Of a DNA stretch of 64,000 nucleotides, positions 15,468 through 50,899 are shown piece after piece. The DNA comes from Eledone cirrhosa (Eukaryota). The position numbers and the translations under genes were made by a program. Each line of letters opens with the position of its first letter. The first letter of the stretch is position 1. The notes beneath the pieces are model-generated. The model was not told where the DNA came from, did not search any database, and worked only from the letters and a program-made list of their open reading frames with translations. The stretch spans positions 204,290,001 to 204,354,000 of the forward strand of contig OZ024743.1 in assembly GCA_964016885.1 (NCBI GenBank). The letters run 5' to 3'.

Positions 15468-16335
15468 TCTCTATATATAAAACTGTGGTTGTCTGTCTGT
15501 CTATCGATTTTTGGCACACATCTCCTCTTAGAATCTCTCACGGTATTGAACCGAAATTGCTAGACTTGTACATTGAGCCCTAGCAAAGACATCGGAAAAA
15601 AAAAATTTCAAATTGACCCACCCTATGTGACGAAATCGAATATAATGTATCGATTTTTGAGCGTAAGTGATCAGTTATTTCCCTTTGTTCTGTTTACATT
15701 GAGCGTCTTACGTAAAAAATTACGCTGGCTTTCTCACACTAAGCTTCCTTTTTGCTTCATTTCCATTTAAAAGCCTTTTAAAACAATATTTTTACTTGAA
15801 AACAAGTCTATTTAAAGACTACGTAAAACAAGCAAATATTTCGTAAAAAAAAGCAAAAATTATATAAGTTTATTTAAAATATATGTATCTATAAATTTCG
15901 TTAGGCGTGCAGACAGACAGTCGTGCAGAGAGGTGATATACGCGTGCAGACAGACAGTCGTGCAGAGAGGTGATATAGGCGTGCAGACAGACAGTCGTGC
16001 AGAGAGGTGATATAGGCGTGCAGACAGACATAACTGATAATTTGGTTACGCTAATGTTTTTATCTGCGTTGCAGTGTTTACATTTTCGATCTTTGTTAAT
16101 AAATAACCAGTGCAGTTTTTATCCCCAGCATCCTCTTTTGTTATAACATTCGGGTTATCGTTATGTTTTCTTAACTTCATAAGGCATATTGTTGTTTGAG
16201 GGAATATTAATCAAAAACACCACATGCAAGTCTGCACAGTAGACACTACAGTTTTTAAGCCAAAAAAGAAACTTAACATTGTAACTTTAACACAGCTACT
16301 GAGCGACCCCGAGCAACGCCGAGCTTTACTGCTAG
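15468..16335 (+). mobile_element. Non-autonomous Helitron-like element, copy 2
   Basis: A|TC...CTAG|T; same body as 5883-6866 with indels. Confidence 0.8.
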
Positions 16336-19269: not shown

Positions 19270-22200
19270 GTTCGTATACAGCGTGGTGATAATGCCACAC
19301 AAGGGCCAAGTGGAATGGCGGATCCACAGATGGCTATGTAACTATACATTCGCCAATCCTCGATAAGAGTGTTTAAATATCGAACATAAACAGTTCGAAT
19401 AACGGTGAAATGGAGACTAGAACGTCATGTGACAGACTCTCACCCAACAGGTGCCCCCTGGCTCAGCAGCAGGAACCTGACTGTCAACCAAATACTGCTG
19501 ATGTTGGAGGAGGAAGAAGAAGGAAAGGGGCCAGAACCAACTGGACGAAAGAATTGAATAGAACTGTTATGCAATGCTACCTGAAAAGTAACCCCAAGGA
19601 GAGGGGCTACAGGAGACGGATGCATAACATCTGGAACGAGATTGGTTTATTTAAATTAGATGAACAAAAATTGGCCGGGCAAGCTCGGGTAATAAGAACT
19701 AATGGGTGGATAAGCGAGCTGGAACTGGAGGAACTGAGCAGAGAGAATGGCTTGGAGATGGCGGGTGTAGTATGCCAGACAAGCGAGCCAGTGGGAAATG
19801 AAGGTGAAGAGGTCCTGAGAACGGAGGAACCACCCGAAGCAGACAATGATGTGAATACTGAGATAAATAATACCTGGAACAGAGATACGGCCACTGAGGA
19901 GATGAATGCTGACGGGCTAGGACAAGATTCCGTTGACATCCTAAATTTAGTGGTAGATGAATTGAACAATGATAGTGGGAGACCTATGAACCTAAGATTT
20001 GTAGACAGGAAAAAGTTAAAAGAAACAACAGCTAAGGTAAACAAAGTCATCCCATACCTTGAGGCGAGGAGCCTTCACCAGTGCAACAATATCCTCAAAG
20101 CAACAGCAAATACGGTGAGGAAACTACTTGGTATAAAAGCGAGAGGAAACAACAGACAAGAAAGAGCAGAGCCGTGGTGGAAGAAGCGACTGAGTGGGCA
20201 AATCGGGGAAATGAGAAATGACATAGGAAAGCTTGAGTCACTACTGAATGGGACACTAAAAAACATAGGCACTAAAAATAGACTGGAAATAAAATACAAA
20301 ACTAGGAGTAAAAAGCTAAATATTATCATAGAGGAATTGAAGCAACGCATTGTAGCAAAGAGTGCAAAAATCAGGCGATACGAGAACAGAGTCAGTCAGT
20401 ATAAACAGAACCGCATGTTCGACAACAACCAGAAGATGCTGTTTGGACAGCTTGAGGGGAAAGAAAGAGGCAACGACTTGATCCCTGGGGCGGAACAAAC
20501 TAAAACATTCTGGAGAGGAATATGGGAGCAGGATGTTAGACACAATGCCCAGGCAGGGTGGATTGACACAGTACAGAGGGAGATCGGTGAGCAGGCACAG
20601 CAACAGACTGATTTGAGTATCACAGTTGAAACTCTTAAGGGGCAGGCCAAAAAACTAACCAACTGGAAATCACCAGGCCCAGATGGTGTGCAGGGGTATT
20701 GGATTAAACATTTAACATCCCTCCACCCGAAGCTGACGGCCATGTTCAATGACTGCTTGGTGTCGGGTGAGGTGCCAGAGTGGTTGACAAAAGGTACCAC
20801 AGTTCTGATAATGAAAGACCGAATCAAGGGTAATGATGTTGCCAACTATAGACCTATCACATGTCTGTCCGTAATGTGGAAACTGTTGACGAGCATTGTG
20901 TCTGAGGAAATCTACCATCACCTCCACACAAACAACTTGTTACCGGACGAACAGAAAGGATGCCGAAAGAAGTCACGTGGTACAAAGGACCAGTTGCTTA
21001 TTGATAAGATGGTAATGGGGAATTGCAGGAGGAGACACACTGATCTTGCCATGGGATGGATAGACTACAGAAAGGCATTTGACATGGTGCCTCATTCCTG
21101 GATCACCAAGAGCCTGGAGATCTTCAGGGTGGCAGATAACATCAGACAGTTGCTAGGCAGGAGTATGGGGTCCTAGGAGACAGAGTTGACATCAACTGGA
21201 GTATCCTTGGGAAGCGTGAAGATCAAGAGAGGTATCTTCCAGGGAGATAGCCTGTCCCCTCTGTTGTTTGTCCTTGCCCTGATGCCCTTGACCATTATGC
21301 TGCGAAAAGTGAGAGCAGGATACAAGTTGGGAAGGGGAGAGCTCACCATCAATCACCTCCTCTTCATGGACGATCTTAAGCTCTTCGGGAAAAGTGAGAA
21401 GGAGTTGGATGTGCTTGTTGACACTGTCCGTATTTTCAGCAGTGATATATGTATGCAGTTTGGTATTGGTAAATGTGGAGTCATTGTGATGAAGAGGGGT
21501 AGGTTGAGCAGAAGTAACGGGATCCAGATACCAACAGGTGAGATGATAAAGGAAATTGACTCTGAGGAAGGATACAAGTATTTGGGCGTTCTGGAGGCTG
21601 ATGGCATAAAGAACAAAAAAATGAAGGAATTGTTAAGAACTGAATACATTCGGAGAGTAAGGAGCGTATTGAAGTCACATCTGAACAGCAGAAATGCCAT
21701 AAGCGCAGTAAATTCCCGAGCTGTGTCTATTATCAGGTACAGTGCGGGAATTCTGAGATGGAATGTTGCTGAACAAAAAGAAATGGATAGGAAGACTAGG
21801 AAGCTATTGACTATCTACAACATGTTCCACAAGAGGAGTGATGTCGATAGACTCTACCTAAGGAGATCTGAGGGTGGAAGAGGTCTTATCAGCATAGAGG
21901 ACTGTGTTCAGATGGAGAAAAACAACCTGTACAAATACGTGACCTATAGTAAGGAGCCAATGCTCAGAACTGTACTGAAGGAGGGGACAGTAGGCCAGGG
22001 GATGTCCAAGGAGGAAATAACATCAAGGAGGAAGAGTAGCCTTAAGGAAAAATCCCTTCATAGTACCTTCTTTGAGAAAACTGAATTTAGAGATCCACAG
22101 ACATGGAACTGGTTGAGAAAAGGAGACCTCAAAAAGGCTACAGAAGGAATGCTAATGGCTGCGCAGGAGCAGGCCCTCAAAACGAAGTGGTTGAAGCACC

Positions 22201-22888
22201 ATATCTACAAGGAGGAGGCTAGCCCACTGTGCAGGATCTGTGGAGAGAGAGAGGAGACTGTGGCTCACATTGTGTCCGAGTGTAAACACCTAGCCCAGAC
22301 CCACTATAAGGGCTGGAGACATTATGTGATGGGCAGGGTGATCCACTGGCACCTGTGCAAAGTAAACAATTTACCACATTCTGAGAAATGGTATGAGCAT
22401 AGGCCAGAGGCGGTGATGGAGAACAATCAGGTGAAGGTGCTGTGGGATTTTAGGATACAGACGGACAAAAAACTGGAACACAATAGACCTGACCTGGTGG
22501 TTGTGGACAAAGAAAAAAGATCGTGCCTGATTGTGGATGTGGCCTGCCCGTTCGACACGAGAGTGCAAGAGAAGGAGAGGGAGAAAATTAACCGATACCA
22601 GGACCTAAAGTGGGAGGTGAAAAGGATTTGGAACTGCCATGAAGTCAAAGTGATCCCGATTGTCATAGGCGCACTGGGGACTATCTCCAAAAGTTTCCAG
22701 GGATGGTTAAAGAAAATCGGCCCCTTCACGCTTTTTGGAACGCTTCAAAAGGCATGCTTGCTTGGAACAGCAAGAACCCTCCGATACGTCCTGAATATCT
22801 GAGGCTGCAGGTAGCGGCTTGATATTCAATCCAACGGACTTTCCAGTTAACCAACATCAATGACTGAGATTCAAGGAATAACAACAAC

Positions 22889-22921
<33 letters not shown>
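19270..22921 (+). mobile_element. Near full-length R4/Dong-clade non-LTR retrotransposon (RT + restriction-like endonuclease), family A
   Basis: KSPGPDG, NYRPITCL, IDYRKAFD, GIFQGDSLSP, LFMDD, YKYLG, CCHC CRICGEREETVAHIVSEC, RPDLVV..IVDVACP, KINRYQDL; short 3' UTR and (AAC)/(TAA)n tail; 5' boundary approximate. Confidence 0.92.
19410..22802 (+). pseudogene. Dong/R4 ORF (~1130 codons) interrupted by one TAG at 21174-21176
   Basis: ORFs 19410-21176 and 21186-22802 are in the same frame; the sister copy has TGG (tcctggaaa) at this position. Confidence 0.88.
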
Positions 22922-22922
<1 letters not shown>

Positions 22923-25638
22923 TCAACAAGTGACATAGACATGCTGATAGAAATAATCAAGCAAAAAGTGTCGGCCAAAGCTCCTCGTATAAGGCGCTTT
23001 GAAAAACGATCTAGATTCTATAAGGACAATAATATGTTCAAAAACAACCAAAGAAACTTCTACAGAAAAATTGGTAAGTCAACAATAACTGCTAAGTCAA
23101 TACCACCCAAGGAGGAAGTGCAAGAATTCTGGGAAAAGATCTGGGCCGAAGAAAAAGTTCATAACATGGATAGACAGACAAATGAAAGATACAGCTCACC
23201 TTGAGGAACAAATATGGGAAAATATAACAGTTGAACAGTTGCGCTTGGCTCTAAGAAAAACCAGCAAATGGAAATCCCCAGGAAAAGACAAAATACAATT
23301 TTTTTGGATAAATGCCTTCACAGAGTCTCATGAGCTGTTAGCCCAACTTTACAATGAAATAGTTAAGGAGCCAGAAAAGATACCATCATGGCTAGTTAAC
23401 GGCATTACATTCCTGCTTCCGAAGAATGATGAGACAAACAATCCCCAAAATTACAGACCGATAACTTGCTTGACCACAATGTATAAAATTTTAACATCAG
23501 TCCTAACTGAATACACATATGACCACCTGATAACAAATGACCTATTTCCCATTGAGCAGAAAGGGTGTAAACGAGGCTCATATGGCTGTAGGGATCAGCT
23601 TTTGGTTAACAAAATGATACTGGAAGATTGTCATAATAGACACAAAAATCTATCGATTGCTTGGATAGATTATAAAAAAGCATTCGATAGTTTGCCACAC
23701 AGTTGGATTGAAAAATGTTTAGAGATTTTCAAAATATCCCCCGTTGTCAGGAGGTTTTTGTCATTCAGTATGAAGACATGGAAAACGACACTCCTTTTGA
23801 ATAGTGAAACAAAATCACTGGAAGCTGGAGAAGTTAATATTAATTGTGGAATTTTTCAGGGTGACTCTTTATCACCGCTTTTATTCTGCATCGCACTTAT
23901 ACCATTAAGTAAAATGCTCAATGAAACAAAACATGGAGATAAAGTCTATGACAAAACCATTAATCACTTGTTCTACATGGATGACCTGAAACTATTTGCA
24001 AAAAATGATGAACAATTGCAAGGGCTATTATCCACTGTGGAGCAGTTCAGTGATGACATTAAAAGCAACGTTCACCAGAGGAAAGCTGCTGAAGTGTTCA
24101 GACATTAATCTTGATCGGGGGAACGTGATAAGAGAACTTGATCAAGAAAAAACTTACAAATATCTAGGTGTTTGTGAAGGAGACGGAATCAAGCACTCGA
24201 CGATGAGGGAAAGGATAAGGAAGGAATGTTACCGCAGAGTAAGAGCAATCTTAAGAACGGAATTGAATGCAAGGAATAGGATCGATGCCATAAACACGCT
24301 TGCCATACCAGTAGTAACCTACAGTTACAATGTCATCAACTGGTCAAGCACAGAGATCCGTAGGCTCGATACAAAAATTCGAAAATTCTTAACCATGCAC
24401 AGAATGCATCACCCTAAGGCAGATATAGATAGAATATATCTCCCTAGGAAAGAAGGAGGACGTGGGTTAATCCAGTTAGACATTGCGTTGAAAACTGCAA
24501 CAATTGGATTATCTACATATCTAAGGGAATCACATGATTGGATGATCAAACTCGTTTTGAAACACGAAAGCATCAAAAGATCATATTCCATTACAAAAGA
24601 TGCACAAAGATACAGTAATGGACTACAAATTTCAGAAGTCCCATTTACTGCTGAAATGGAAAACACAGAAAAAGCAAAGCAGGTAAAAGTAACTGCAAAG
24701 AAAGAACTGCTACAGAAACTGGCTAAGAAGTGGCAAGAAAAGCCTCTGTATGGAAAATACCCAGAACGAGCTAACAATCCTGATGTTGACAAAACTTTAA
24801 CCCATCAGTGCTTGGCATCCTCTGGACTGAAATCGGAGACTGAAGGACTGATTATATCAGCACAAGATCAGTGTCTGCCAACAAAAAATTACCAAGCCAA
24901 CATAATAAAAAATGGATGCAGCCCATTATGCCGTGTATGCAAAACACAACCAGAGACCATTGACCATATAATTTCAATGTGCAGTCCTATACCTCCAACC
25001 CAATACCTAAACAGGCATGACAGAGCTGCACAATACATACATTGGATAATGTGTAAGCATTTTGACCTGCCCCATCAAAATAATTGTTGGGAGCATCAAC
25101 CACCACCCATACTTGAAAAAGATCACATCTCAATCTTGTGGAACTTTAGCATCCAAACAGACCGAAAAATAGATGCAAATAAACCTGATATAATACTGAA
25201 GGACTTTAAAAAGAGGGTATGCCTGCTAATTGATATGTCCGTTCCAATAGACAAGAATGTATCTATAAAAACATTTGAAAAATTGAGCAAGTATAAGGAC
25301 CTGGAGATAGAAATTGGAAAAATGTGAAAATTGAGAACTAAAACAATACCAGTGGTTGTAGGCACTCTGGGAATGATACCTAAGGGGTCTATTGATTACT
25401 TATCGCAAATCCCAGGAAACTCGCGTATAGGAGAAATACAAAAGATAGTACTAATGGGAACTGCCCATATACTAAGGAAGATTCTGTCAATATAACTACA
25501 TCACAAGTCTAAACACTAAAGATGCATGTGTGAGTATGTATATTCTTTCTTGAACATGGCGGACCTTGTTGTCTCTTGAGGTCACTGGTTGTGACTTGGT
25601 GATAACTCGTATGAACATAAAGCAAGATAAATGCAACT

Positions 25639-25693
<55 letters not shown>
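22922..25693 (+). mobile_element. 5'-truncated R4/Dong-clade element, family B
   Basis: WKSPGKD, NYRPITCL, LFYMDDLK, CRVCKTQPETIDHIISMC, KPDII..LIDMSVP; frameshifts; starts in the tail of element A and ends in (TAA)n. Confidence 0.9.
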
Positions 25694-25694
<1 letters not shown>

Positions 25695-25898
25695 CTACAT
25701 ATCTAAGGGAATCACATGATTGGATGATCAAACTCGTTTTGAAACACGAAAGCATCAAAAGATCATATTCCATTACAAAAGATGCACAAAGATACAGTAA
25801 TGGACTACAAATTTCAGAAGTCCCATTTACTGCTGAAATGGAAAACACAGAAAAAGCAAAGCAGGTAAATGCAACTGTAATAATAATAATAATAATAA
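25694..25898 (+). mobile_element. Mini-derivative of family B (internal piece + 3' terminus + TAA tail)
   Basis: Copy of ~24512-24687 fused at TAAA to terminal tgcaactg(taa)n. Confidence 0.8.
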
Positions 25899-28800
25899 TG
25901 TCGGTGGAAGAAGAAGAAGGAAAGGGACCAGAACCAACTGGACGAAAGAATTGAATAGAACTGTTATGCAATGTTACCTGAAGAGTAACCCCAAGGAGAA
26001 AGGCTATAGGAAACGGATGCATAACATCTGGAACGAGATTGGTCTATTTAAATTAGATGAACAAAAATTGGCCGGGCAGGCTCGGGTAATAAGAACTAAT
26101 GGGTGGATAAGCGAGCTGGAACTGGAGGAACTGAGCAGAGAGATTACGTTGGAAATGGAGGGTGGAGTATGCCAGGCAAACGAGCCAGTGGAAAATGAAG
26201 GTGAAGAGGTTGAGAGAACGGAGGAAGCATCCGAAGCAGACAATGATCTGAATGCTGAAATAAATAATTGTTTCTACTTTAGGAACAAGGCCAGCAATTA
26301 CCCAGTGCATTACTGGTACTTTATTTTATCGACCCCGTAAAGATGAAAGGCAAAGTCAACCTCGGCGGGATGGAACAAAGATACGGCCATTGAGGAGATG
26401 AATGCTGACGAGCTAGGACAAGATTTGGTTGATATCCTAAACTTAGTGGTAGATGAATTGAACAATGATAGTGGGAAACCTATGAACCTGAGATTTGTAG
26501 ACAGGAAAAAGTTAAAAGAAACAACAGCTAAGGTAAACAAAGTCATCCCATACCTTGAGGCAAGGAGCCTTCACCAGTGCAACAATATCCTGAAAGCAAC
26601 AATGCGGTGAGGAAATTACTTGGCATAAAAGCGAGAGGAAACAACAAACAAGAAAAATCAGAACCTTGGTGGAAGAAACAACTGAATGGTCAAATCAAGG
26701 AAATGAGAAATGACATTGGAAAGCTTGAGTCCCTACTGAATGGGACACTAAAAATAGACTGGAAATAAAGTACAAAACTAGGAGGTAAAAGCTAAATATT
26801 ATCATAGAGGAACTGAAGCAACGCATTGTAGCAAAGAGTGCAAAAATTAGGCGATACAAGAGCAGAGTCAGTCAGTATAGACAGAACCAACTGGAAATCA
26901 TCAGGCCCAGATGGTGTGCAGGGGTATTGGATTAAAAATATAACATCCCTCCACCCCAAACTGACAACCATGTTCAATGACTGCTTGATGTCAGGTGAGG
27001 TACCAGAGTGGTTGACAAAAGGTACTACAGTTCTGGTAATGAAAGACCGAATCAAGGGTAATGATGTTACCAACTATAGATCTATCACATGTCTGTCCGT
27101 AATGTGGAAACTTTTGACAAGCATTATGTCTGAGGAAATCTACCATCACCTCCACACAAACAACTTGTTACCGGACGAACAGAAAGGATGCCGAAAGAAG
27201 TCCCGTGGTACAAAGGACCAGTTAGTTATTGATAAGATGGTAATGAGGAATTGCAAGAGGAGACACACTGGTCTTGCCATGGGATGGATAGACTACAAAA
27301 AGGCATTTGACATGGTGCCTCATTCTTGGATCACCAAAAGCCTAGAGATCTTCAAGGTGTCAGATAACATCAGACAGTTGTTGGGCAAAAGTATGAAGTC
27401 CTGGAAAACAGAATTAACATCAGCTAAAGAATCCTTGGGAGGCGTGAAGATCAAGAGAGGTATCTTCCAGGGAGATAGTCTGTCCCCACTGTTGTTTGTC
27501 CTTGCCCTGATGCCCCTGACCATTATACTGCGAAAAGTGAGAGCAGGATACAAGTTGGGAAAGGGAGAGCTTACCATCAATCACCTCCTTTTCATGGACG
27601 ATCTTAAGCTCTTCGGGAAGAGTGAGGAGTTGGATGTGCTTGTTGAAACTGTCCGTATTTTCAGCAATGATATGATATATGTATGCAATTTCGTATTAGT
27701 AAGTGTGGAGTCCTTGTGATGAAGAGGGGGTAAATTGAGCAGAAGCAACGGAATCCAGGTACCAACAGGTGAGATGATAAAGGAAATTGACACTGAAGAA
27801 GGATACAAGTATTTGGGTGTTCTGGAGGCTGATGACATCAAGAACAAAAGAAATGAAGGAATTTATAAGATCTGAATACATTCGGAGAGTAAGGAGCGTA
27901 TTAAAGTCACATCTGAACAGTAGGAATGCCATAAGTGCAGTAAATTCCCGAGCTGTGTCTATTATTAGGTACAGTGCGAGAATTCTGAGATGGAATGTTG
28001 CTGAACAAAAAGAAATGGATAGGAAGACTAGGAAGCTATTGACTATCTACAACATGTTCCACAAGAGGAGTGATGTCGATAGACTCTACTTAAGGAGATC
28101 TGAAGTTGGAAGAGGTCTTATCAGCATAGAGGACTGTGTTCAGATGGAGAAAAACAACCTACACAAATACGTGACTGATAGTAAGGAGCCAATGCTCAGA
28201 ATTGTACTGAAGGAGAGGACAATAGACCAGGGGATGTCCAAGGAGGAAATAACAACAAGGAGAAAGAGCAGCCTTCATGAAAAATCCCTTCATAGTACAT
28301 TCTTTGAGAAAACTGAATTCAGAGATCCACAGACATGGAACTGGTTGAAAAGAGGAGACCTTAAAAAGGCTACAGAAGGAATGCTAATGGCTGCGCAAGA
28401 GCAGGCCCTCAAAACGAAGTGGTTGAAACACCATATTTACAAGGAGGAGGCTAGCCCACTGTGCAGGATCTGTGGAGAGAGAGAGGAGACTGTGGCTCAC
28501 ATTGTATCCGAGTGTAAATACCTAGCCCAGACTCACTATAAGGGCTGGAGACATTATGTGATGGGCAGGGTAATCCACTGGCACCTATGCAAAGTAAACA
28601 ATTTACCACATTCTGAGAAGTGGTATGAGCATAAGCCAGAGTCGGTGATAGAAAACGATCAGGTGAAGGTGCTGTGGGATTTTAGGATACAGACGGACAA
28701 GAAACTGGAACACAATAGACCTGACCTGGTGGTTTTGGACAAGGAAAAAAGATGGTGCCTCATTGTGGATGTGGCCTGCCCATTCGACACGAGAGTGCAA

Positions 28801-29064
28801 GAGAAGGAGAGGGAAAAAATTAACCGATACCAGGACTTAAAGCACTAGGTACTATCTCAAAAAGTTTCCAGGGATGGTTAAAGAAAATTGGCCCCGCCAC
28901 GCTTTTTGGAACGCTTCAAAAGGAATGCTTGCTGGGAACAGCAAGAACCCTCCGATACGTCCTGAATATCTGAGGCTGCAGGTAGTGGCTTGATATTCAT
29001 TTCAACAAACTTTCCAGTTAATTAACATCAATGACTGAGACTCAAAGAACAATAATAATAATAA
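25898..29064 (+). mobile_element. Second, degenerate copy of Dong/R4 family A with nested SINE fragment
   Basis: Colinear with 19500-22900; frameshifts, deletions near 26885 and 28845; antisense SINE piece at ~26263-26370. Confidence 0.9.
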
Positions 29065-29109
29065 TTGTTTCTACTTTAGACACAAGGTCAGCAATTACCC
29101 AGTACATTT

Positions 29110-29157
<48 letters not shown>

Positions 29158-29159
<2 letters not shown>

Positions 29160-32100
29160 TTTCTTTATTAACCACAAGGGTTTACATAAAGTAGACATTA
29201 AGGACAGTGCAGGACAATACAGGACGGTACAAATAGGCATTTCTGCGTGTAAAAAACAAAAACAGAGGATGTAAGAAAAAATAACAATGAAAAATTCCCC
29301 AATAGGGGGGAGACTTCGGAGGGACATTTGTGGAGAAAGCCCAGTAAAATGCCATAATGACCCTGACCACCAAGGAAAGTGCCCTCTCCCAGTTTTCCAC
29401 CTTTAATTTACAGATATATACTCACTCGGGCCATTCTTGCTTCTCTCACCCATCTTTCAACAAAATGCTGGGAAGAGAGCACTTCCCTCTCTACCCTGAT
29501 TTTCCTTTTCAAATGAAATTTGAAAAAGTTAATCAGGGCATCACCGAAGAGGTATGTGCACGTCTTCAGCCCTTTCAAACGTGTCCACCATACTATCTCT
29601 TTCGCCATGGCCACCAGACAGATAAAAACTGCCTGCCCTTCCAGGCTAAAGGAAGAGGGCGGGGCAATCCTCATGATGGACTCAGCTGATAGCTGGATCC
29701 GTCCTACACGTGACAGCAGGTATTCGACATAAACCCACAAGTCAGCAATGCTCGGACACTGGACGAGTGCGTGCAGGACGGTTTCGTCGCCCTGCGCGCA
29801 TCTCGGACATTCCCGGCTGACGGCACCTCCATGCCTGTAGAGTTTATCCCGAACTGGCAAAGGTCCTCAGTAGCAGTGCCAGGCCAGGGATTTCTGGAAG
29901 TTGTCCATAGGCCCCGGCCCGAAAGTCCTTCCGAAGAGATTGGCTAGTTGATTTTCGTCGACGCTTAGAGTTTCTCCAAGTGCATCGTCGCTCTTCCCCT
30001 CCACTAATCCTCTATAGAACGCCAAAGTGGAGTGTCCACCGATCACATTGCCCGATTGGTCGAGGGCTGTGAGCGCCTGAAGACATTCCAGTCTCCAAGC
30101 GCTCCCTCTCGGTCTTCGCTTGACCCAGGACTGCAGCTCCGTCAAGGAGACGAGCTGGGGAAAGACGTGTCTAGCAAACGGCGACCACACCTGATCACCG
30201 TCGAGGAACAGGTGGAGATGTCGTAGCCTGAGCGCGTGTCTGCGCATCATCATCCACGGCATGCCCAGCCCTCCACGTAGCGGGTGTTTACAGCAGATGG
30301 ACCGCCTGACCATCGGAGCGCGTCCCTTCCACAAAAAGCGAAAGAGCAAACGCTCCAGCGCAGTCAGGCGGGGCTTAGGACAAGGTACGACGGTCAGGCG
30401 GTAGTAGTTGACTAACGCGATGTACGCGTTGGCTACCTCCGCTTGACCTTTCAGGGATCGCTTCCTCTCCGCTCATTTCTGGGTGAGAGAAGCCACCCTG
30501 CTCGTCACCTCGTCCCAGTTTTTGTCTGTATGGAGGTCCGGACCGATCCAGACCCCTAGCAATTTAACCGGTCCGTCCGTCCAGCGCCCGACGACGCTGT
30601 TGGGCGGCATGGACCTGCCTCTCCAGGTGCCGAGCTGCAGGCCCACTGACTTTTCCTGGTTGATCATTGCTCCTGTCACCGCTTCGTATTCTCTTAGTGT
30701 AGTGCCGATCGCCTCGATGTGTTTGGCGTTCGACACCACTACGGTGACATCGCCCGCATATGCTGACACGGATATTCCGCATCCTAGTTCGCGCGGGACA
30801 CCCCTCAACGTTTCCAGTTTGTGCAGTAATGGCTCGAGAGTCAATATGTACAAGAGGGACGAGAGGGGACATCCTTGGCGGACCGAGCGCATGATGTTGA
30901 ACGGTTCCGAAAGGTAACCGTTCACTCTCACCACAGAGCAGATGTCGCTGTGTATGGCAGCGATCCAGCCTCTGAAGACGGGCCCAAAGCCAGCCGCCCT
31001 CAGGACTGCCGCTAGGTAACGATGGTCGACCCTATCGAAAGCTTTCGACTGATCTAAATTGATCAAGGACCCACCCGTGCCAGGTTCCCTAGCTACGCTC
31101 TCTACGATGTATCGCAGGTGGAGGGGGAGGTTGTCGTGGATGGATCTGTCGGGATTGGCGCATGTCTGCGCCTCTTCCACCAGACCACCAACGACAAGCG
31201 CCAACCTCTCTGCTAGCACCTTGGCCAAAATCTTGAACTCTGTGTTTAGCAGAAATATGGGCCTGAAATTATCTATGTTATCCCCCTTGTTCGGATCATT
31301 GCTCTCAGCAGCGTCACAGCTCCTCGGCTCACAGAGCTGGGAATTCTCCCGTTCTGTTGCCAGTTGCAGTAGACGTCCGCCAAGAGGCCTCCGAACAAGT
31401 CTGGCATCTGTACGTAAAGTTCATAGGGCAGACCATCCAAACCAGGCGATTTACCCCTTGTGCAGCCAGTCATTGCCTCCCGTACTTCAGCGGCTGTTAT
31501 CGGCTTTTCGCAACACTCCCCCTCAGTGGCCGAGAGCGGCGGCAGTCCGTCGAGGTAGACACTAAAGTCCATCCCTCGATCCGGCCCGCCACTGCCCCCG
31601 AACAGCTGCGCAAAGTGTCGATGAAAAGCTTCACACATTTTCCCGGGATCGTGGCTTTGTTGCTACGACGCGCCTCCGCCACTCGGGCCCATTGAACGGC
31701 TTTCGTCTCCTCGTGTCTGAGAGCACGCACCCTAGCTCTGACAACGCAGCCTTCGTGCTTTGCATTGAAGAATTGGCCAAGGGCCAATATCACCGCAAGT
31801 ACGTCGGTCGCGATGCCTTTTCTAGTAGCCGGGTCCTCGTCTATGAAGCCTATCTAAGTCAAGCACACAGATCACGAATGTGTGGTCCGTGTAGCTGACT
31901 ATCTTGAATTGTGGACAGCCTATGCTAGACCTATCTATTTCCCTACAAAATACTCTATCTAGATATGATCTGGATGACCCTATGCGATTTGTCCAAGTCC
32001 ACATTGGCACATTCGGGAAATCCAATCGGTACGTGTCAGACAGTTCAAAACACCTGAGCAGGTTGGTGAGGCTCTTATACCATCCTCCCCTATCCGCTAA

Positions 32101-34112
32101 TCCCACACAGTCCCAGCGTGCATCTAAGATCCCGTTCCAGTCGCCCACTAACACTAAAGAGCGGGACGTTCCAAGAAAGGTCTCCAGACGCCGCAAGAAA
32201 TCAGGCCGCCCTGCTCCTGTCGGGGCATAGACGGCCACTATCCTAAAAGCTTGCCCGTCTCCGCTGGTCACGTCTAGCACCACCAACTTACCTCCGTGCG
32301 TCGGAGATTCTGGTCTCGCTGATGACCACTACATCTATGTTTAGTGACCTGAGGTCGTTGAGCAGGTGGCCCTGCTTCCATGACGACCCCAAGCCACGCG
32401 CATTTATGCTGCCTATTCTGAGTGAGATCATGTTGAAATGGAGTGGAAAAGATGGGAAAGACCCTTACCTTACTTCTCGTAGAGGAAGGATGGTTTATCC
32501 ATCCCTTTTCACTTCATCGTCTGGTGAAGGGACCGTTGAATCGTCCCTTCGGCTGGTCGTCGGCTCTTTTGTGAGTATATCCGAATATACTCTCCGGTTG
32601 AGTGTCCCTCCTAGGTCTCTGAAATCACCAACTGCGTTGGGGAATTTCGTTTTAATGTTAGAGTATTGTTTCTGTGCTATTCTTACCAGTCTTATGTTCG
32701 TTGGTGTTTTGATTGGTGCTGGTATTATGTAGTCGTGCTGTGAAATGTTTGTGTGTTCAATTATGTAAGTCATTAGTTTCTTGTTGTGTGTGTTTTGTTG
32801 TTGTGTTTGCGATGTTGGTGCTTGTGGTGGTGGTGTTGAAGGTGTTGTTGTTGTTTGCGGTGGTGTTGCCGCCGGCGGTGATGGTGGTGCTAGTGTGGGT
32901 GGTGATGGTGTTGATGGTGTTGCTGCTGTAAGTCTCTTTGCAGTAGCCTTTACCCTTTTTTCATTTCTTTCCTCCCTTTTCGAAGGCGACGATGCGCTGC
33001 TTCTGCGTTTGAGCCTTCTTGCGACCTTTTGCCATTCCTCTCCCACCTCACACTCCATGTCTGATTCTGTGAGGTCGGGGAGGGATACCAGCTCCAATCT
33101 TTCACTTGTTGTTGTTGGTGATGTTTGCAGTGGAGTCTCTGTTGCAGCTGCAGTTGGTATTACTGTTGTTGTTGTTAATACTTCCACTGCTGCTGCTGTT
33201 CTTGATTTCCGTGGCGTGGGTATGGGTGCCACGGACTTATCCTTCTTGGTTGCCGCCTGTCCTGTTGCTGATAGCAGTGGAGCCGGTTTCGTAAGGAGGG
33301 GGGTTTCCTCCTTTCTCAGGGTCGTCTCATTGCAGAAGGACCTGAAGTGAGTCTTCGATCCACAGCGAAAGCATTTCGGGCGTTTGGCCTCAACACTTAA
33401 GGGCAGTTGACTGCTGTTATCGAAGTCTATCACATCCGGGATAGCTTCGATGCACTCCTGGTTGGTTTGGATTAACATCTCAATGGAGTTGCCAACCCAA
33501 TCTTCTCGTACTTTTTTCTGTACTTGCAGTACAGTTGTTTTGTCCTCGATTTCGACGAGGACAGTCGCGGCCAGCCAAGAAGGGGCCATCCCGGGGGTAG
33601 TGGGTCAGTTTGACCCTCACAATTTTTTGCCCGCACCAACACCAACACCATTTCCTCGTTCCTTGGGGTCACTAAGGATTGAGCCTTTGTCTCCTGAGGT
33701 GTGGCAAAAAGCACGTCCACGGTAGCATATTTCTTGCCTCGGGTGATATGCGTTTTCCGCTGCCACACAGACCCTAAGGCTTTTTGTATTTGAACCTCTG
33801 TGGCTCTTTCCACCCTACGGGATTTTCTGCTTACTGTACGGTACGTGACCGTACAGTGCTGTTGGGTTTCGAAAAATGTTTCGGCTGCCTTGCAGATGGC
33901 TCGTTGTCCAGTTTTCGTCACCATCTTCTTTGCTTCCTGTAATTCCTCATTTGTTATAAGGATGGTTTCCAGGTTCTTTGCGATACCTGCAAACGAGATT
34001 GGTTTTTCTTTCTTGTTGTTGTTGTTGCGTCAGAGCTGCTGTTACTTTTGTTGTTGCTGCTGGTACTACGACCGCCGCCGCCGCTGTTGCTGTGGTTGTT
34101 GTTGTTGTTTGC

Positions 34113-38620: not shown

Positions 38621-40850
38621 AAACATAAAGATAATAATGACAAAAATAAAAGCAAAGAGAGGGTGAGAAAGAAGAAAGGAAAAGATAGCCAAGAAGGGGA
38701 GGGAAGGAAGGAAGAAAACGAAGAAATAGAAGAAGGAGAAGAGATGGATATATGCATTGGTTTTGTGGGTAATTAAAAGGGTTTAGATACAACAAGAGGG
38801 TATAAAGTTTAAGTATATGTAGTTTGTCAGTTGGTAGTAAAAGGTTAAGGGTTTGATTTGTAGTGCGAAAACTTCTCTTTGAGTCTATGGTTACAATAAA
38901 TCGATCTTTCGATTTTATTGTTGAGTAACTTATTCTTCGAACTCAAGATGTGGAACAGCTCAAGGTCGCATAATGGACAGCTTCTCATACCACTCCGATA
39001 TTGGGGCGCGTTCGATAATTTTTTCCACTTCAGGGTGTATTGATGGTTACTTTCCCTCAGTTGCCAGGTCTTGTTTGCAAGGGTAGTTACATAACGATGC
39101 TGGGAATGTTTCATTGCGTAACGGTGTGTATACCAACGGGCTTTAAATGTATTCCCAGTCGCTCCGATGTAATACCATTTCTGCTTGTCTGATTCCACTG
39201 TGCATTGGTAAACCAGGTTAGACTGCATACATTCATTATGTAATGGACAGGTTTCAGGTAGGTGGCAGTTACAGTTCTTATCATGGGCAACTTTGGCGTT
39301 ATTGGTGGGCTGCGATGCCTGTACAAGTGTGTTACGTTTTGTTTGCCTATTAGCGGGTGGTTGTGTATTAGATATTCTGTTGTGTTCGGTGGTGATTGTA
39401 TTGTTATTGTTGTAAATGTGCCTTTTGGTGTTGTTATGTATCTTTTTAGCGTTAAGCTTCTTAATGTGTGCCTCTATATTTGGTGCCATGGATTAAGATA
39501 GTCTAATAGATTTAGTGTTAAGGATTTTGCTGTATCTATGTGAATCTGGAAAGTGCTTAGTTATTATTCTAAAGAAGGTAGAGGGTAGGTTAGTATTAAT
39601 AGAGGTGTTAAATATGGGGTTGAACCAAATATATTTTCTACTGCGTGACTTGTTTGATTTCGATGTTGTATTTCTATTTGCCGTATACTTTGCAGTTCTA
39701 TGCGTAAGTGCGTGTGTGCGTGTGTTACCGGAGTTTGTGTTATGCGTGTTCGTGTGTGCTTCACGGAGGCTTTCATCTATATATTCTACTCTATCTAAGT
39801 GGCCTGCCTTGTCTAATGCGGTATTGTAGTATTCTGCATGTTCTTCGAAGATTTGTCGGTTAGACGAGAGGCGGGTGATCCTAAGGGATATGCTGCGTGG
39901 AATGGATTTAATTATGGATAGTGGGTCGTTTGAGTTACAGTTGATGTATGCTAAGTTTTCATTAATCTTGTGAAAGGTCTTATAAGTCGCGTATTTAGGT
40001 TAAGCGTCGCGTCTAGAAAGTTAACTGTTTTAGTGCTATACTCATACGTTATGCTAAGGCCTAGTTTTCCGAGAGTCTTTCTAATATTCTTACGGAGTCT
40101 TTCTATGCTCTGGTTATTTAGGTTCTTAACTAGAAGGGCGTCGTCTCTGTAGATTCCACCGTGAAGGTCGCTAAACTCACTTTGTAAACTATGGGCTATG
40201 TAAACACCTACTAAATCTGTGACTTGAGCCGAGTCGATAGCTCCCATCGTGATGTCAAAGTTATTTAATCTATCCTTACGTTCCCAATAGGCGTTTTCAA
40301 ATTTAATTATTCTTTTCCTAGCAGCTAATATGATTTTTATCTCGTTGTCTGTTATGTCAGAATTGGCTTTAGCGAATGCTAAGGCTTTATCCAAGGTGTT
40401 GGGGGATATAGATGAGTAATAATCGTTAATGTCAAATTGTATAAATTTAGATACTTCTTTGTTAGCTATATTGTTAAACCACTTAATTGTTTCGGTAGCG
40501 TTACCCCATTGTTTAATCACTAGTTTATTCTTCATTTGTGCTATCACTCTGTCTAATATATGTTTACTAATTTTCCCGATGTCCGATTAGGACGGGCATA
40601 TAAGTCTAATTGTGGGGTTATAATCAAAATTTACCTTGTGGTCCTTGAGGTTAAATGTGGGGGTACATGGCCTTAGTGGCTCCGTTCTGTCGTCTATTCC
40701 TAGGTGTTTGACTATATTGTGTGCTTCGTTGTTGATGATTATCAATGCCGCCTCATTAGTTTTTTTGTATTTCCTATGTAATTCCTTCCGTATGAAGCTA
40801 TTGTATGTATTTACATCCATCGGAATTCTTACAAACTTGTGGAGTTACCC
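38130..40850 (-). mobile_element. Penelope-like retroelement (RT + GIY-YIG), 5'-truncated
   Basis: LKDHK..PTIRLICP, FIQFDINDYYSSIS, ITMGAIDSAQVTDLVG, GGIYRDDAL, VNFLDATL; CNCHLPETCPL..C, LVYQCTV..YYIGAT..FKARWYTH, CPLC. Confidence 0.93.
38134..38235 (-). ncRNA. Type I hammerhead candidate (U3-A8 variant)
   Basis: UAUU-UUGAAAA-UUUGG...CCAAU-GAAA-CGGUCG-UA^AAUA at the 3' end of the Penelope element. Confidence 0.6.
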
Positions 40851-42718: not shown

Positions 42719-42920
42719 GTATATGTATATATATATTATTATTATTACTTTCAAAGTATAGGATGTCATGAATGATACAAAATGAAACATATGTCTTGTT
42801 TCCAAAAACATTTCAAGATAGAATTCAGAGAATCAAATCGAGCCTTAATCATTATAAGAAAATGATTGAAATATATTCATACACAGATAAGTGTGCACTA
42901 AGACATATCAAAACTTGGAG

Positions 42921-43370
42921 CTAGAGACAATCTACACTGAAAGTAAGACTACATAGTTCGTTGAGTATCTTATTAAATTTAATAAAAAATTTAAAACAGA
43001 ACACCTGATAACCATCAAAATATTTCCCTCATATGTATTCTCCACAATATACTGACTGCTATTTCTAGTGGTCGAGAACCTTTCATGTCGTTGAGAGTGC
43101 TAAAATTCATGTGTTGAGACCATGCACGTTTAGCCACTTTCAACACTGGATGGGGTGAGATTAGATGATTTTGAAATTCCCTCACTGATGATCCGTTTCA
43201 AATTATCTAATTTCGCCGTAATTTGGTGAAATGTATTCTGATTTTGTGGAGAATACATATGAGGGAAATATTTTGATGGGTATCAGGTATTCTGTTTTAC
43301 ATTTTTTATTAAATTTAATAAGATACTCGATGAATTATGTAATCTTACTTTCAGTGCAGATTGTCTCTAG
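42921..43370. repeat. Inverted repeat, 127-bp arms, ~196-bp structured spacer
   Basis: 42921-43047 versus 43244-43370. Confidence 0.88.
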
Positions 43371-43783
43371 TTATATGTTATAGTTGTATATAGTGTATAC
43401 ATAACTATAAATAATATTATATATATATATATATATATTTGTGTGCGCGTGTGTGTGTGTATGTATGTATGTATATATATATAATATATATAAATGTATA
43501 TATATATATACATATATACATATATATAAATGTATATATATATATGGATATATATATATATATACAATTAAGTTAAAGTGTACATCTACATATGTATACG
43601 GAAGTATTAGTATGCATATAAATACACACATGTATACATATGTACATGTACTCAGCTTTTCACTAGACACTTTACAGTGAGTGTCAGCTAGTCTGTATGT
43701 AACCACACAGGCGGACCGGGTTTTAGAGTCATACGAGTTTTCAAGGAAACACATTTCCTCTATTCTCCAGAGGGCCAGACAGG

Positions 43784-43828
43784 AATATTGGACTAGTTTC
43801 GATGTTATTACATCTCATCAGCAATATT
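43784..43828 (-). ncRNA. Type I hammerhead of the array unit (first of 12 minus-strand copies, every 469 bp to 48943-48987)
   Basis: AAUAUUG-CUGAUGA-GAUGU(aaua)ACAUC-GAAA-CUAG-UC^CAAUAUU. Confidence 0.93.
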
Positions 43829-46800
43829 TACCCATCTTCCGGCTTCTCTGGAGAATTGTAAAAGCACATATCGTTATATGCTTTTTCTATGAAAATTAGT
43901 AGTGGGTAGACCAATTTGCATAGAACGTGAGTCATTGTACGCACCGGTTCAGCGGAAACGATAAAAACAAATAACGAAACGAAATCAAACTTCGTTTCGC
44001 TTCTAACTCACTTTTGTATGACTGACGCTTAAACAATTAAGTTAAAGTGTACATCTACATATGTATACGGAAGTATTAGTATGCATATAAATACACACAT
44101 GTATACATATGTACATGTACTCAGCTTTTCACTAGACACTTTACAGTGAGTGTCAGCTAGTCTGTATGTAACCACACAGGCGGACCGGGTTTTAGAGTCA
44201 TACGAGTTTTCAAGGAAACACATTTCCTCTATTCTCCAGAGGGCCAGACAGGAATATTGGACTAGTTTCGATGTTATTACATCTCATCAGCAATATTTAC
44301 CCATCTTCCGGCTTCTCTGGAGAATTGTAAAAGCACATATCGTTATATGCTTTTTCTATGAAAATTAGTAGTGGGTAGACCAATTTGCATAGAACGTGAG
44401 TCATTGTACGCACCGGTTCAGCGGAAACGATAAAAACAAATAACGAAACGAAATCAAACTTCGTTTCGCTTCTAATTCACTTTTGTATGACTGACGCTTA
44501 AACAATTAAGTTAAAGTGTACATCTACATATGTATACGGAAGTATTAGTATGCATATAAATACACACATGTATACATATGTACATGTACTCAGCTTTTCA
44601 CTAGACACTTTACAGTGAGTGTCAGCTAGTCTGTATGTAACCACACAGGCGGACCGGGTTTTAGAGTCATACGAGTTTTCAAGGAAACACATTTCCTCTA
44701 TTCTCCAGAGGGCCAGACAGGAATATTGGACTAGTTTCGATGTTATTACATCTCATCAGCAATATTTACCCATCTTCCGGCTTCTCTGGAGAATTGTAAA
44801 AGCACATATCGTTATATGCTTTTTCTATGAAAATTAGTAGTGGGTAGACCAATTTGCATAGAACGTGAGTCATTGTACGCACCGGTTCAGCGGAAACGAT
44901 AAAAACAAATAACGAAACGAAATCAAACTTCGTTTCGCTTCTAACTCACTTTTGTATGACTGACGCTTAAACAATTAAGTTAAAGTGTACATCTACATAT
45001 GTATACGGAAGTATTAGTATGCATATAAATACACACATGTATACATATGTACATGTACTCAGCTTTTCACTAGACACTTTACAGTGAGTGTCAGCTAGTC
45101 TGTATGTAACCACACAGGCGGACCGGGTTTTAGAGTCATACGAGTTTTCAAGGAAACACATTTCCTCTATTCTCCAGAGGGCCAGACAGGAATATTGGAC
45201 TAGTTTCGATGTTATTACATCTCATCAGCAATATTTACCCATCTTCCGGCTTCTCTGGAGAATTGTAAAAGCACATATCGTTATATGCTTTTTCTATGAA
45301 AATTAGTAGTGGGTAGACCAATTTGCATAGAACGTGAGTCATTGTACGCACCGGTTCAGCGGAAACGATAAAAACAAATAACGAAACGAAATCAAACTTC
45401 GTTTCGCTTCTAATTCACTTTTGTATGACTGACGCTTAAACAATTAAGTTAAAGTGTACATCTACATATGTATACGGAAGTATTAGTATGCATATAAATA
45501 CACACATGTATACATATGTACATGTACTCAGCTTTTCACTAGACACTTTACAGTGAGTGTCAGCTAGTCTGTATGTAACCACACAGGCGGACCGGGTTTT
45601 AGAGTCATACGAGTTTTCAAGGAAACACATTTCCTCTATTCTCCAGAGGGCCAGACAGGAATATTGGACTAGTTTCGATGTTATTACATCTCATCAGCAA
45701 TATTTACCCATCTTCCGGCTTCTCTGGAGAATTGTAAAAGCACATATCGTTATATGCTTTTTCTATGAAAATTAGTAGTGGGTAGACCAATTTGCATAGA
45801 ACGTGAGTCATTGTACGCACCGGTTCAGCGGAAACGATAAAAACAAATAACGAAACGAAATCAAACTTCGTTTCGCTTCTAACTCACTTTTGTATGACTG
45901 ACGCTTAAACAATTAAGTTAAAGTGTACATCTACATATGTATACGGAAGTATTAGTATGCATATAAATACACACATGTATACATATGTACATGTACTCAG
46001 CTTTTCACTAGACACTTTACAGTGAGTGTCAGCTAGTCTGTATGTAACCACACAGGCGGACCGGGTTTTAGAGTCATACGAGTTTTCAAGGAAACACATT
46101 TCCTCTATTCTCCAGAGGGCCAGACAGGAATATTGGACTAGCTTCGATGTTATTACATCTCATCAGCAATATTTACCCATCTTCCGGCTTCTCTGGAGAA
46201 TTGTAAAAGCACATATCGTTATATGCTTTTTCTATGAAAATTAGTAGTGGGTAGACCAATTTGCATAGAACGTGAGTCATTGTACGCACCGGTTCAGCGG
46301 AAACGATAAAAACAAATAACGAAACGAAATCAAACTTCGTTTCGCTTCTAACTCACTTTTGTATGACTGACGCTTAAACAATTAAGTTAAAGTGTACATC
46401 TACATATGTATACGGAAGTATTAGTATGCATATAAATACACACATGTATACATATGTACATGTACTCAGCTTTTCACTAGACACTTTACAGTGAGTGTCA
46501 GCTAGTCTGTATGTAACCACACAGGCGGACCGGGTTTTAGAGTCATACGAGTTTTCAAGGAAACACATTTCCTCTATTCTCCAGAGGGCCAGACAGGAAT
46601 ATTGGACTAGCTTCGATGTTATTACATCTCATCAGCAATATTTACCCATCTTCCGGCTTCTCTGGAGAATTGTAAAAGCACATATCGTTATATGCTTTTT
46701 CTATGAAAATTAGTAGTGGGTAGACCAATTTGCATAGAACGTGAGTCATTGTACGCACCGGTTCAGCGGAAACGATAAAAACAAATAACGAAACGAAATC

Positions 46801-49020
46801 AAACTTCGTTTCGCTTCTAACTCACTTTTGTATGACTGACGCTTAAACAATTAAGTTAAAGTGTACATCTACATATGTATACGGAAGTATTAGTATGCAT
46901 ATAAATACACACATGTATACATATGTACATGTACTCAGCTTTTCACTAGACACTTTACAGTGAGTGTCAGCTAGTCTGTATGTAACCACACAGGCGGAGC
47001 GGGTTTTAGAGTCATACGAGTTTTCAAGGAAACACATTTCCTCTATTCTCCAGAGGGCCAGACAGGAATATTGGACTAGTTTCGATGTTATTACATCTCA
47101 TCAGCAATATTTACCCATCTTCCGGCTTCTCTGGAGAATTGTAAAAGCACATATCGTTATATGCTTTTTCTATGAAAATTAGTAGTGGGTAGACCAATTT
47201 GCATAGAACGTGAGTCATTGTACGCACCGGTTCAGCGGAAACGATAAAAACAAATAACGAAACGAAATCAAACTTCGTTTCGCTTCTAACTCACTTTTGT
47301 ATGACTGACGCTTAAACAATTAAGTTAAAGTGTACATCTACATATGTATACGGAAGTATTAGTATGCATATAAATACACACATGTATACATATGTACATG
47401 TACTCAGCTTTTCACTAGACACTTTACAGTGAGTGTCAGCTAGTCTGTATGTAACCACACAGGCGGACCGGGTTTTAGAGTCATACGAGTTTTCAAGGAA
47501 ACACATTTCCTCTATTCTCCAGAGGGCCAGACAGGAATATTGGACTAGCTTCGATGTTATTACATCTCATCAGCAATATTTACCCATCTTCCGGCTTCTC
47601 TGGAGAATTGTAAAAGCACATATCGTTATATGCTTTTTCTATGAAAATTAGTAGTGGGTAGACCAATTTGCATAGAACGTGAGTCATTGTACGCACCGGT
47701 TCAGCGGAAACGATAAAAACAAATAACGAAACGAAATCAAACTTCGTTTCGCTTCTAACTCACTTTTGTATGACTGACGCTTAAACAATTAAGTTAAAGT
47801 GTACATCTACATATGTATACGGAAGTATTAGTATGCATATAAATACACACATGTATACATATGTACATGTACTCAGCTTTTCACTAGACACTTTACAGTG
47901 AGTGTCAGCTAGTCTGTATGTAACCACACAGGCGGACCGGGTTTTAGAGTCATACGAGTTTTCAAGGAAACACATTTCCTCTATTCTCCAGAGGGCCAGA
48001 CAGGAATATTGGACTAGCTTCGATGTTATTACATCTCATCAGCAATATTTACCCATCTTCCGGCTTCTCTGGAGAATTGTAAAAGCACATATCGTTATAT
48101 GCTTTTTCTATGAAAATTAGTAGTGGGTAGACCAATTTGCATAGAACGTGAGTCATTGTACGCACCGGTTCAGCGGAAACGATAAAAACAAATAACGAAA
48201 CGAAATCAAACTTCGTTTCGCTTCTAACTCACTTTTGTATGACTGACGCTTAAACAATTAAGTTAAAGTGTACATCTACATATGTATACGGAAGTATTAG
48301 TATGCATATAAATACACACATGTATACATATGTACATGTACTCAGCTTTTCACTAGACACTTTACAGTGAGTGTCAGCTAGTCTGTATGTAACCACACAG
48401 GCGGAGCGGGTTTTAGAGTCATACGAGTTTTCAAGGAAACACATTTCCTCTATTCTCCAGAGGGCCAGACAGGAATATTGGACTAGTTTCGATGTTATTA
48501 CATCTCATCAGCAATATTTACCCATCTTCCGGCTTCTCTGGAGAATTGTAAAAGCACATATCGTTATATGCTTTTTCTATGAAAATTAGTAGTGGGTAGA
48601 CCAATTTGCATAGAACGTGAGTCATTGTACGCACCGGTTCAGCGGAAACGATAAAAACAAATAACGAAACGAAATCAAACTTCGTTTCGCTTCTAACTCA
48701 CTTTTGTATGACTGACGCTTAAACAATTAAGTTAAAGTGTACATCTACATATGTATACGGAAGTATTAGTATGCATATAAATACACACATGTATACATAT
48801 GTACATGTACTCAGCTTTTCACTAGACACTTTACAGTGAGTGTCAGCTAGTCTGTATGTAACCACACAGGCGGACCGGGTTTTAGAGTCATACGAGTTTT
48901 CAAGGAAACACATTTCCTCTATTCTCCAGAGGGCCAGACAGGAATATTGGACTAGTTTCAATGTTATTACATCTCATCAGCAATATTTACCCATCTTCCG
49001 GCTTCTCTGGAAGATGGGTA

Positions 49021-49065
49021 AATATTGCTGATGAGATGTAATAACATCGAAACTAGTCCAATATT
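49021..49065 (+). ncRNA. Type I hammerhead of the array unit (plus-strand copies; also 49490-49534 and 49959-50003)
   Basis: aatattgctgatgagatgtaataacatcgaaactagtccaatatt read directly. Confidence 0.93.
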
Positions 49066-50466
49066 CCTGTCTGGCCCTCTGGAGAATAGAGGAAATGTGT
49101 TTCCTTGAAAACTCGTATGACTCTAAAACCCGGTCCGCCTGTGTGGTTACATACAGACTAGCTGACACTCACTGTAAAGTGTCTAGTGAAAAGCTGAGTA
49201 CATGTACATATGTATACATGTGTGTATTTATATGCATACTAATACTTCCGTATACATATGTAGATGTACACTTTAACTTAATTGTTTAAGCGTCAGTCAT
49301 ACAAAAGTGAGTTAGAAGCGAAACGAAGTTTGATTTCGTTTCGTTATTTGTTTTTATCGTTTCCGCTGAACCGGTGCGTACAATGACTCACGTTCTATGC
49401 AAATTGGTCTACCCACTACTAATTTTCATAGAAAAAGCATATAACGATATGTGCTTTTACAATTCTCCAGAGAAGCCGGAAGATGGGTAAATATTGCTGA
49501 TGAGATGTAATAACATCGAAACTAGTCCAATATTCCTGTCTGGCCCTCTGGAGAATAGAGGAAATGAGTTTCCTTGAAAACTCGTATGACTCTAAAACCC
49601 GGTCCGCCTGTGTGGTTACATACAGACTAGCTGACACTCACTGTAAAGTGTCTAGTGAAAGGCTGAGTACATGTACATATGTATACATGTATGTATTTAT
49701 ATGCATACTAATACTTCCGTATACATATGTAGATGTACACTTTAACTTAATTGTTTAAGCGTCAGTCATACAAAAGTGAGTTAGAAGCGAAACGAAGTTT
49801 GATTTCGTTTCGTTATTTGTTTTTATCGTTTCCGCTGAACCGGTGCGTACAATGACTCACGTTCTATGCAAATTGGTCTACCCACTACTAATTTTCATAG
49901 AAAAAGCATATAACGATATGTGCTTTTACAATTCTCCAGAGAAGCCGGAAGATGGGTAAATATTGCTGATGAGATGTAATAACATCGAAACTAGTCCAAT
50001 ATTCCTGTCTGGCCCTCTGGGAATAGAGGAAATGTGTTTCCTTGAAAACTCGTATGACTCTAAAACCCGGTCCGCCTGTGTGGTTACATACAGACTAGCT
50101 GACACTCACTGTAAAGTGTCTAGTGAAAAGCTGAGTACATGTACATATGTATACATGTGTGTATTTATATGCATACTAATACTTCCGTATACATATGTAG
50201 ATGTACACTTTAACTTAATTGTTTAAGCGTCAGTCATACAAAAGTGAGTTAGAAGCGAAACGAAGTTTGATTTCGTTTCGTTATTTGTTTTTATATATAT
50301 ATACATTTATATATATGTATATATATATATATATAAATGTATATATATATGTATATATATATAAATGTATATATATATATATATATATATACATACATAT
50401 AAATGTATATATATGTATATATGTGTATATATATATATATATAAATTTTTGTATATATACATATAA

Positions 50467-50567
<101 letters not shown>

Positions 50568-50899
50568 CATATAAATTTATATATATATATTGAAACCCAC
50601 TTCTGCTTGCCTGAACTCAAAGACCGAGATCTTCAGATGTTGTCCTCACCTGAAATCACATCTGATCTGTAACTGGATTGACATTCCTACGATAACTCAA
50701 CCACTTTGAACTCCTTCTCTGCTCTTTAGTTCCACTACGGTGTTTTTACCTGCTGAATTCACGTTCTATACTCTCGTATTCTCTTTCTCCCTTATCTCCC
50801 CTTATATTTAGACCTTTTCCTATGTCAATTCCACCCCCCCCCCCTACTTTCTGCCTTACCACTCACACACCCAATTTTTTTTATTTTTAGATATTTATT

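Follow-up and report, generated by a model that had tools for sequence, protein, structure and literature searches.

How does a tandem array of hammerhead-bearing repeats come to lie, inside one TA-rich tract, as two arms joined head to head? A preliminary description of the locus answered that Penelope reverse transcriptase (RT) made the array by snap-back priming. We have followed this proposal from the single copy to its paralogs, to the family of repeats that it belongs to and to the autonomous elements of the same genome, and argue that the RT likely copies one RNA from both cut target ends rather than by fold-back self-copying. The window, that is, the whole stretch of 64,000 nucleotides analysed, is C4:204290001-204354000 in an assembly of 3.0 Gb.

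Structure of the window copy

The insertion is built from a 469-bp unit (GC 0.37-0.38) carrying a type I hammerhead, a non-LTR retrozyme, and its features are collected in Table 1. Unit coordinates are counted from position 1 = 49009, which places site A at about 349 and site B at 274-281. The joint reads ccatcttcc-ggcttctct-ggaagatgg at 48991-49017, and the orientation flips at a 3-nt GGA microhomology shared by the left arm (...ctctGGA) and the right arm (GGAagatgg), within what the predicted fold makes an extended stem I, about 20 bp before a hammerhead whose core begins 19 nt on. The arms stand head to head, and both 3' ends meet (TA)n, as seen on either side. These points agree with the preliminary description, as does the presence of a palindrome of more than 2.5 kb; it is imperfect and measures 2,582 bp (47713-50294), with mirrored arms of 1,286 bp each. 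Two properties that it had not included are the far greater length of the left arm and the fact that the 3' ends of the two arms are different sites of the unit.

The arms differ by six substitutions across the first 1,012 bp, with a 1-nt indel after that, and the variants of one are not mirrored in the other. Within the long left arm variants recur at periods of 3 and 2 units, which shows that part of it was duplicated as DNA after insertion. The hairpin at the joint is predicted at only -1.4 kcal/mol as DNA. No open reading frame (ORF) of at least 150 aa is present in 43564-50294.

Table 1. Positions in the window of the parts of the insertion and of its target
Feature	Coordinates	Strand	Remarks
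(TA)n-rich target, left part	43460..43563	.	Empty tract in paralog L134
Left arm	43564..49011	-	11.6 tandem hammerhead units; 3' end = site B, unit position 277, at 43564
Inversion joint	48997..49011	+	9-nt spacer 49000-49008 from left arm; GGA overlap 49009-49011; weak 5-bp hairpin
Right arm	49009..50294	+	2.74 units; 3' end = site A, unit position 349
Type I hammerhead, first right-arm unit	49021..49065	+	Core from 49028; predicted cut after 49058
'Tail'	50223..50294	+	About 72 nt from site B to site A; only at the right end of the insertion
(TA)n-rich target, right part	50295..50590	.	Empty tract in paralog L134

Elsewhere in the window, the left flank (42760-43420) is a dispersed repeat, within which a segment of about 130 bp is inverted, and two arrays of one 37-bp unit lie at 6363-6561 and 15902-16030. 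Several broken RT ORFs (Pfam RVT_1), with internal duplication, occupy 19377-33604 and 38845-40586; they are fragments with no GIY-YIG match, probably of non-LTR retroelements, and are unrelated to the array.

The hammerhead and the repeat RNA

By sequence and predicted fold, a hammerhead is present in every unit of either arm. At the gathering threshold Rfam returned zero matches in the whole window; below it, the hammerhead of the next right-arm unit matches RF02275 (HH9) at 49479-49549 with an E value of 1.1e-6 and 31.8 bits (gathering score 52). A compensatory change in stem II was found in 17 loci, and a core change at position 44 in 4 left-arm units. The monomer is highly self-paired (-159 kcal/mol, z -10.1 against 100 shuffles).

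In one sequencing run (X4), comparison with window 48960-49060 gave a 499-nt contig, 30 nt more than one monomer, a length to be expected of a tandem array or of a circle. A related family of hammerhead repeats, with units of about 480-510 bp and a sequence around the ribozyme that is 76% alike, is present at L172:8479-9604 and in L175.

A read-through transcript of the palindrome could pair over about 1.3 kb, and the predicted cut of the first hammerhead falls 50 nt inside the right arm. Transcripts running outward from the joint would all be of the same sense. We identified no host gene in the window.

Paralogous copies of the insertion

The exact joint is found at four places on C4, within a segmental duplication. 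In two paralogs that share the junction the left arm comprises only 1.6 units; since these two cluster together by right flank, a single contraction explains this as parsimoniously as a single expansion. In the fourth (C4 204.69 Mb) the left arm breaks off after 49 nt, and the right arm amounts to 0.74 unit. A paralog lacking the insertion (L134) has, between the same anchors, a TA-rich tract of 466 nt, where the window has 149 + 305 nt, so that the tract measures 466 nt empty against 454 nt filled and any target-site duplication is hidden within it. Two further paralogs (L135 and L136) carry other sequence at the target position. The flanks of the window insertion have no mirror symmetry. We conclude that the palindrome is one real insertion of the hammerhead repeat into a (TA)n tract, and that arm length has changed later as DNA.

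The segmental duplication takes in the window and C4 203.8-204.7 Mb; it repeats about every 130-150 kb, in at least seven copies, the insertion being present in some and absent from others. At the fourth paralog (L067:3430-4100) the left arm gives way, after its 49 nt, to a palindromic repeat and then to the 3' terminus of a family of autonomous Penelope-like elements.

Family-wide census of insertion ends

Genome-wide, the A-end pattern has 2,383 exact matches, and the B-end pattern, which is subfamily-specific, has 195 on the forward strand. For the census 80 regions of C1 were picked by their A end alone: the first 40 stand for 41 ends among the first 42 in the list (a duplicate was skipped, and the extra end is not inverted), and the second 40 are the next listed ends minus 5 already in the set, with predictions fixed before examination. 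Inverted insertions were found in 56 of the 80 regions (70%). Their far end was B in 49 (at 274-281, one about 5 nt short), another position in 3 and not reached in 4; in none was it A. The same A/B rule was seen in loci selected by similarity or by the B end and, by inspection, the B ends listed on C1 included no B/B pairs within 10 kb. Single-arm insertions end at A or at B, beside TA. The structure in the window is the usual product of this retrozyme family, and from 70% of the 2,383 exact A-end matches, extrapolated from C1, we estimate 1,600-1,700 like loci in the genome.

One inverted insertion on C1 (127.666-127.689 Mb; L137:5731-10000 and L132:1-7495) has a B arm of apparently about 23 kb, or about 50 units, as judged from its two sides.

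Autonomous Penelope-like elements in the same genome

Retrozymes have been described as non-autonomous partners (PMC7229834 and bioRxiv 10.64898/2026.07.22.740005, in their accessible sections). The genome holds at least 150 GIY-YIG loci, several of them within ORFs that combine RT with a C-terminal GIY-YIG domain and have hammerheads of their own; four of five such ORFs inspected have the cysteine linker of Neptune elements (linker as given in the accessible text of PMC8557442). In one RT + GIY-YIG family the elements have one short end and one tailed end: 30 of 100 short (B) ends among the matches listed have a head-to-head tailed (A) end within 6 kb, the tailed pattern being one that matches internal copies too, and short/short and tail-to-tail pairs number zero among the matches listed. 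In a third family, one inverted copy (L168) follows the A/B rule with a tail of 68 nt.

The loci L162-L178 include at least three autonomous RT + GIY-YIG families, which differ in their type I hammerheads and are flanked by (TA)n. Their ORFs reach 938 and 1,096 codons from stop to stop, and L174 and L168 are inverted copies in which one end is tailed.

Terminal homology of the retrozyme to a partner, or to its pLTR, was limited to 22-nt matches in the 40 of at least 150 GIY-YIG loci compared. Matches to the retrozyme unit in L172 and L175 were rejected as partner homology, since they are separate repeat insertions.

Arm lengths, haplotypes and joints

If the cDNA folds back at its truncated end and copies itself, and the copy then joins the other target end, the second arm should be contained in the first, be no longer than it and mirror its variants. 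This form of self-priming has been published as a proposal for palindromic joints (PMC3846280, in its accessible part), and we compared its expectations with 84 A/B loci (56 + 28), in which the window's group was counted once and from which we dropped one locus whose joint was unresolved and those in which an end was not reached. Taken alone, the window copy has lengths compatible with self-copying and a 5-bp hairpin at its joint. Over the 84 loci, A- and B-arm lengths are uncorrelated (Spearman -0.01; medians 547 and 600 nt), with the B arm the longer in 42. Neither arm could be a copy of the other at 20 loci (22.2 +/- 3.7 in shuffled pairs), which excludes self-priming there unless the arms contracted later, and near-full fold-back lengths occur at 5 loci against 3.7 in shuffled pairs; all these counts are to be read with the caveat that arm length changes after insertion, which blurs the length test at any one locus. 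At locus L082 the overlap between the arms is zero.

The haplotypes of the arms fit the use of one RNA, and they also fit self-priming. The arms overlap in unit coordinates at 48 of 54 loci. Where the overlap was sufficient (48 loci), the partner arm had the nearest haplotype, or tied for it, in 36, a closer arm lying at another locus in the remaining 12.

Near-mirror joints number 13 of 83 against 4.4 expected (p 0.0004), several of them at a perfect hairpin at unit 311-337; this enrichment means that fold-back contributes, and it thus helps to form a minority of joints, the other 70 of 83 not being near-mirror. By another measure (n = 56), 29 joints have an overlap of 0-4 nt, 21 have inserts and 6 have an overlap of at least 5 nt, and several inserts repeat adjacent arm sequence. 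An excess of tail-only A arms, which had been predicted in advance as a mark of a shared RNA, did not replicate (1 of 10 sub-unit arms); in a looser form, A-arm starts at 276-292 occur at 7 of 84 loci against 3.0 expected (p 0.03), a weak and post hoc result.

Recurrent joints at a near-perfect 29-nt hairpin (unit 309-337), just upstream of site A, were seen at L133, L183, L190, L208, L209 and L095. In three joints at this hairpin the A arm is 41 nt.

A further property of the ends counts against self-priming as the sole mechanism: the far end is fixed and is always the other site (no A/A among 52), which it leaves unexplained, even though better homology to the target is available at the TA-rich unit positions 190-260. 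We therefore consider self-priming alone to be unlikely. What stands of the proposal that Penelope RT made the array by snap-back is its Penelope setting, that is, a Penelope-associated hammerhead repeat, a 5'-truncated head-to-head inversion, a (TA)n target and RT + GIY-YIG elements with the same end pattern; snap-back as the maker of the array is not supported, given the uncorrelated lengths, the 20 of 84 loci that cannot be self-copies unless contracted later, ends that are fixed and alternate and, in the window copy, unmirrored variants. The long arm was amplified in part as DNA.

Other routes to a head-to-head insertion

Only a slim chance can be given to a second route, in which priming occurs at A alone, the cDNA folds back and an endonuclease resolves the duplex at B, so removing the tail from the second end. 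It accounts for one A end and one B end, and endonuclease resolution has been proposed for the tail (PMC8557442, in its accessible text). The B arm would, however, have to be no longer than the A arm, a relation that half of the 84 loci violate; B-only single-arm insertions exist; and both boundaries of the tail are RT starts in vitro (PMC11167929, in its accessible results).

Two independent back-to-back insertions, or a DNA inversion by replication template switch in an older array, would draw on the facts that arrays do change as DNA and that (TA)n tracts accept neighbouring insertions (L090). From independent insertions one would expect A/A, B/B and tail-to-tail pairs, arms separated by TA and haplotypes that differ, none of which was seen, and a DNA inversion would not terminate at site B beside TA; both are largely refuted and highly improbable. 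Least credible is an assembly artefact: no read or contig spanned the junction in the 8 runs examined out of 21 listed, these being uninformative contigs of a high-copy repeat or RAD (reduced-representation) reads, probably from other individuals, but a chimeric fold-back read is an unlikely source of the junction because the flanks are not mirrored, the arms differ from each other, the exact joint stands at four places with diverged surroundings and the tract of a paralog is empty, and the same A/B design recurs at dozens of loci whose joints differ.

A proposed two-ended mechanism of insertion

We suggest that the insertion is probably explained by twin priming, carried out in trans by a Penelope-like endonuclease/RT on one RNA. 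The observations at its core are a single insertion into a TA tract, two arms that stand head to head and of which one ends at A and the other at B, arm lengths that are independent of each other and a common haplotype. In such a mechanism, the Penelope-like enzyme would cut both target strands, one target end priming cDNA at site A and the other at site B on a single RNA. Each cDNA would then extend an independent distance along a circular or multimeric RNA with strand displacement; both are needed where the arms exceed one unit on both sides and, since the arms overlap, unlike those of L1 twin priming, the model has to invoke either strand displacement or a second RNA. Short microhomology or short templated inserts would then join the two antisense 3' ends, and each joined cDNA would template the second strand of the other. 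At the window locus, the GGA at the end of the left cDNA could pair with TCC on the other cDNA, or first on itself, as a local fold-back followed by strand transfer; a local fold-back may thus have formed the joint in the window. Several results count against this explanation: no partner enzyme emerged from the 40 GIY-YIG loci compared, the tail-only prediction did not replicate, arm lengths change after insertion, near-mirror joints are enriched, the arms overlap at most loci and at 12 of 48 loci a closer arm lay elsewhere.

More tentatively, and with somewhat less than even confidence, we propose that Penelope-like elements with an endonuclease normally integrate by two-ended priming, in which the two subunits of an enzyme dimer would take two fixed and mutually exclusive starts on one RNA, with a double rolling circle where the template is a circular retrozyme. 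If so, inverted pLTRs, the one-sided tail and tandem arms would be explained in one step, and the genome would have been seeded with well over 1,000 kilobase-long palindromes able to form dsRNA. The 469-nt RNA with its two mapped start sites offers a compact test substrate.

Comparison with known systems

Like animal non-LTR retrozymes (accessible sections of PMC7229834 and bioRxiv 10.64898/2026.07.22.740005), the present family is a short, non-coding, low-GC tandem repeat, every unit of which carries a type I hammerhead; it is highly self-paired and occurs in many dispersed copies together with autonomous Penelope-like elements. Its 469 bp compare with RNAs of 170-400 nt in PMC7229834 and fall within the range of bioRxiv 10.64898/2026.07.22.740005. 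It differs in that 70% of the insertions examined are inverted head to head with two fixed ends, a pattern that the accessible sections of those accounts do not describe, and in that comparison with 40 of the GIY-YIG loci, which number at least 150, showed no pLTR homology to a partner longer than 22 nt.

Neptune-type, endonuclease-bearing Penelope-like elements resemble it in having, at the 5' end, an inverted copy that is 5'-truncated, a tail that is often confined to one end, a bias to (TA)n and some palindromic joints, and their insertion cycle has been called undefined (accessible text of PMC8557442 for the copies, tail, bias and cycle; of PMC3846280 for the joints). Here, in contrast, there is no ORF, the tail measures about 70-75 nt where theirs has 30-40, both arms can be longer than one unit and the tail may sit at either end. 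A search of the literature found no twin-priming model for Penelope inversions, although older Penelope reviews in subscription papers or supplements may hold one.

In twin priming as defined for L1, the arms derive from non-overlapping parts of the RNA, poly(A) is the first primer and the second site is free. Priming of two target ends on one RNA yields head-to-head arms and a microhomology joint in LINE-1 (bioRxiv 10.1101/2024.12.14.628481, in its accessible text), and the present insertions resemble this in their head-to-head arms and in the microhomology or short inserts at the joint. They differ from it in that the two priming sites are both fixed, with about 70 nt between them, no poly(A) is involved, the arms overlap (at 48 of 54 loci) and most of the insertions are inverted.

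A biochemical parallel is Poseidon PAc in vitro: the purified Penelope-like protein, predicted to be dimeric, cuts and extends both strands of an AT-rich target, and its RT starts at two adjacent internal RNA sites that bound the tail (accessible results of PMC11167929). That portion of the paper neither links the two sites to inverted insertions nor reports different sites at the two ends. The end-rule counts favour priming from both target ends and would connect the RT starts seen in vitro with the inverted structure. The structure itself is known and the mechanistic evidence is new; its value lies in an end rule that holds across the family and can be tested.
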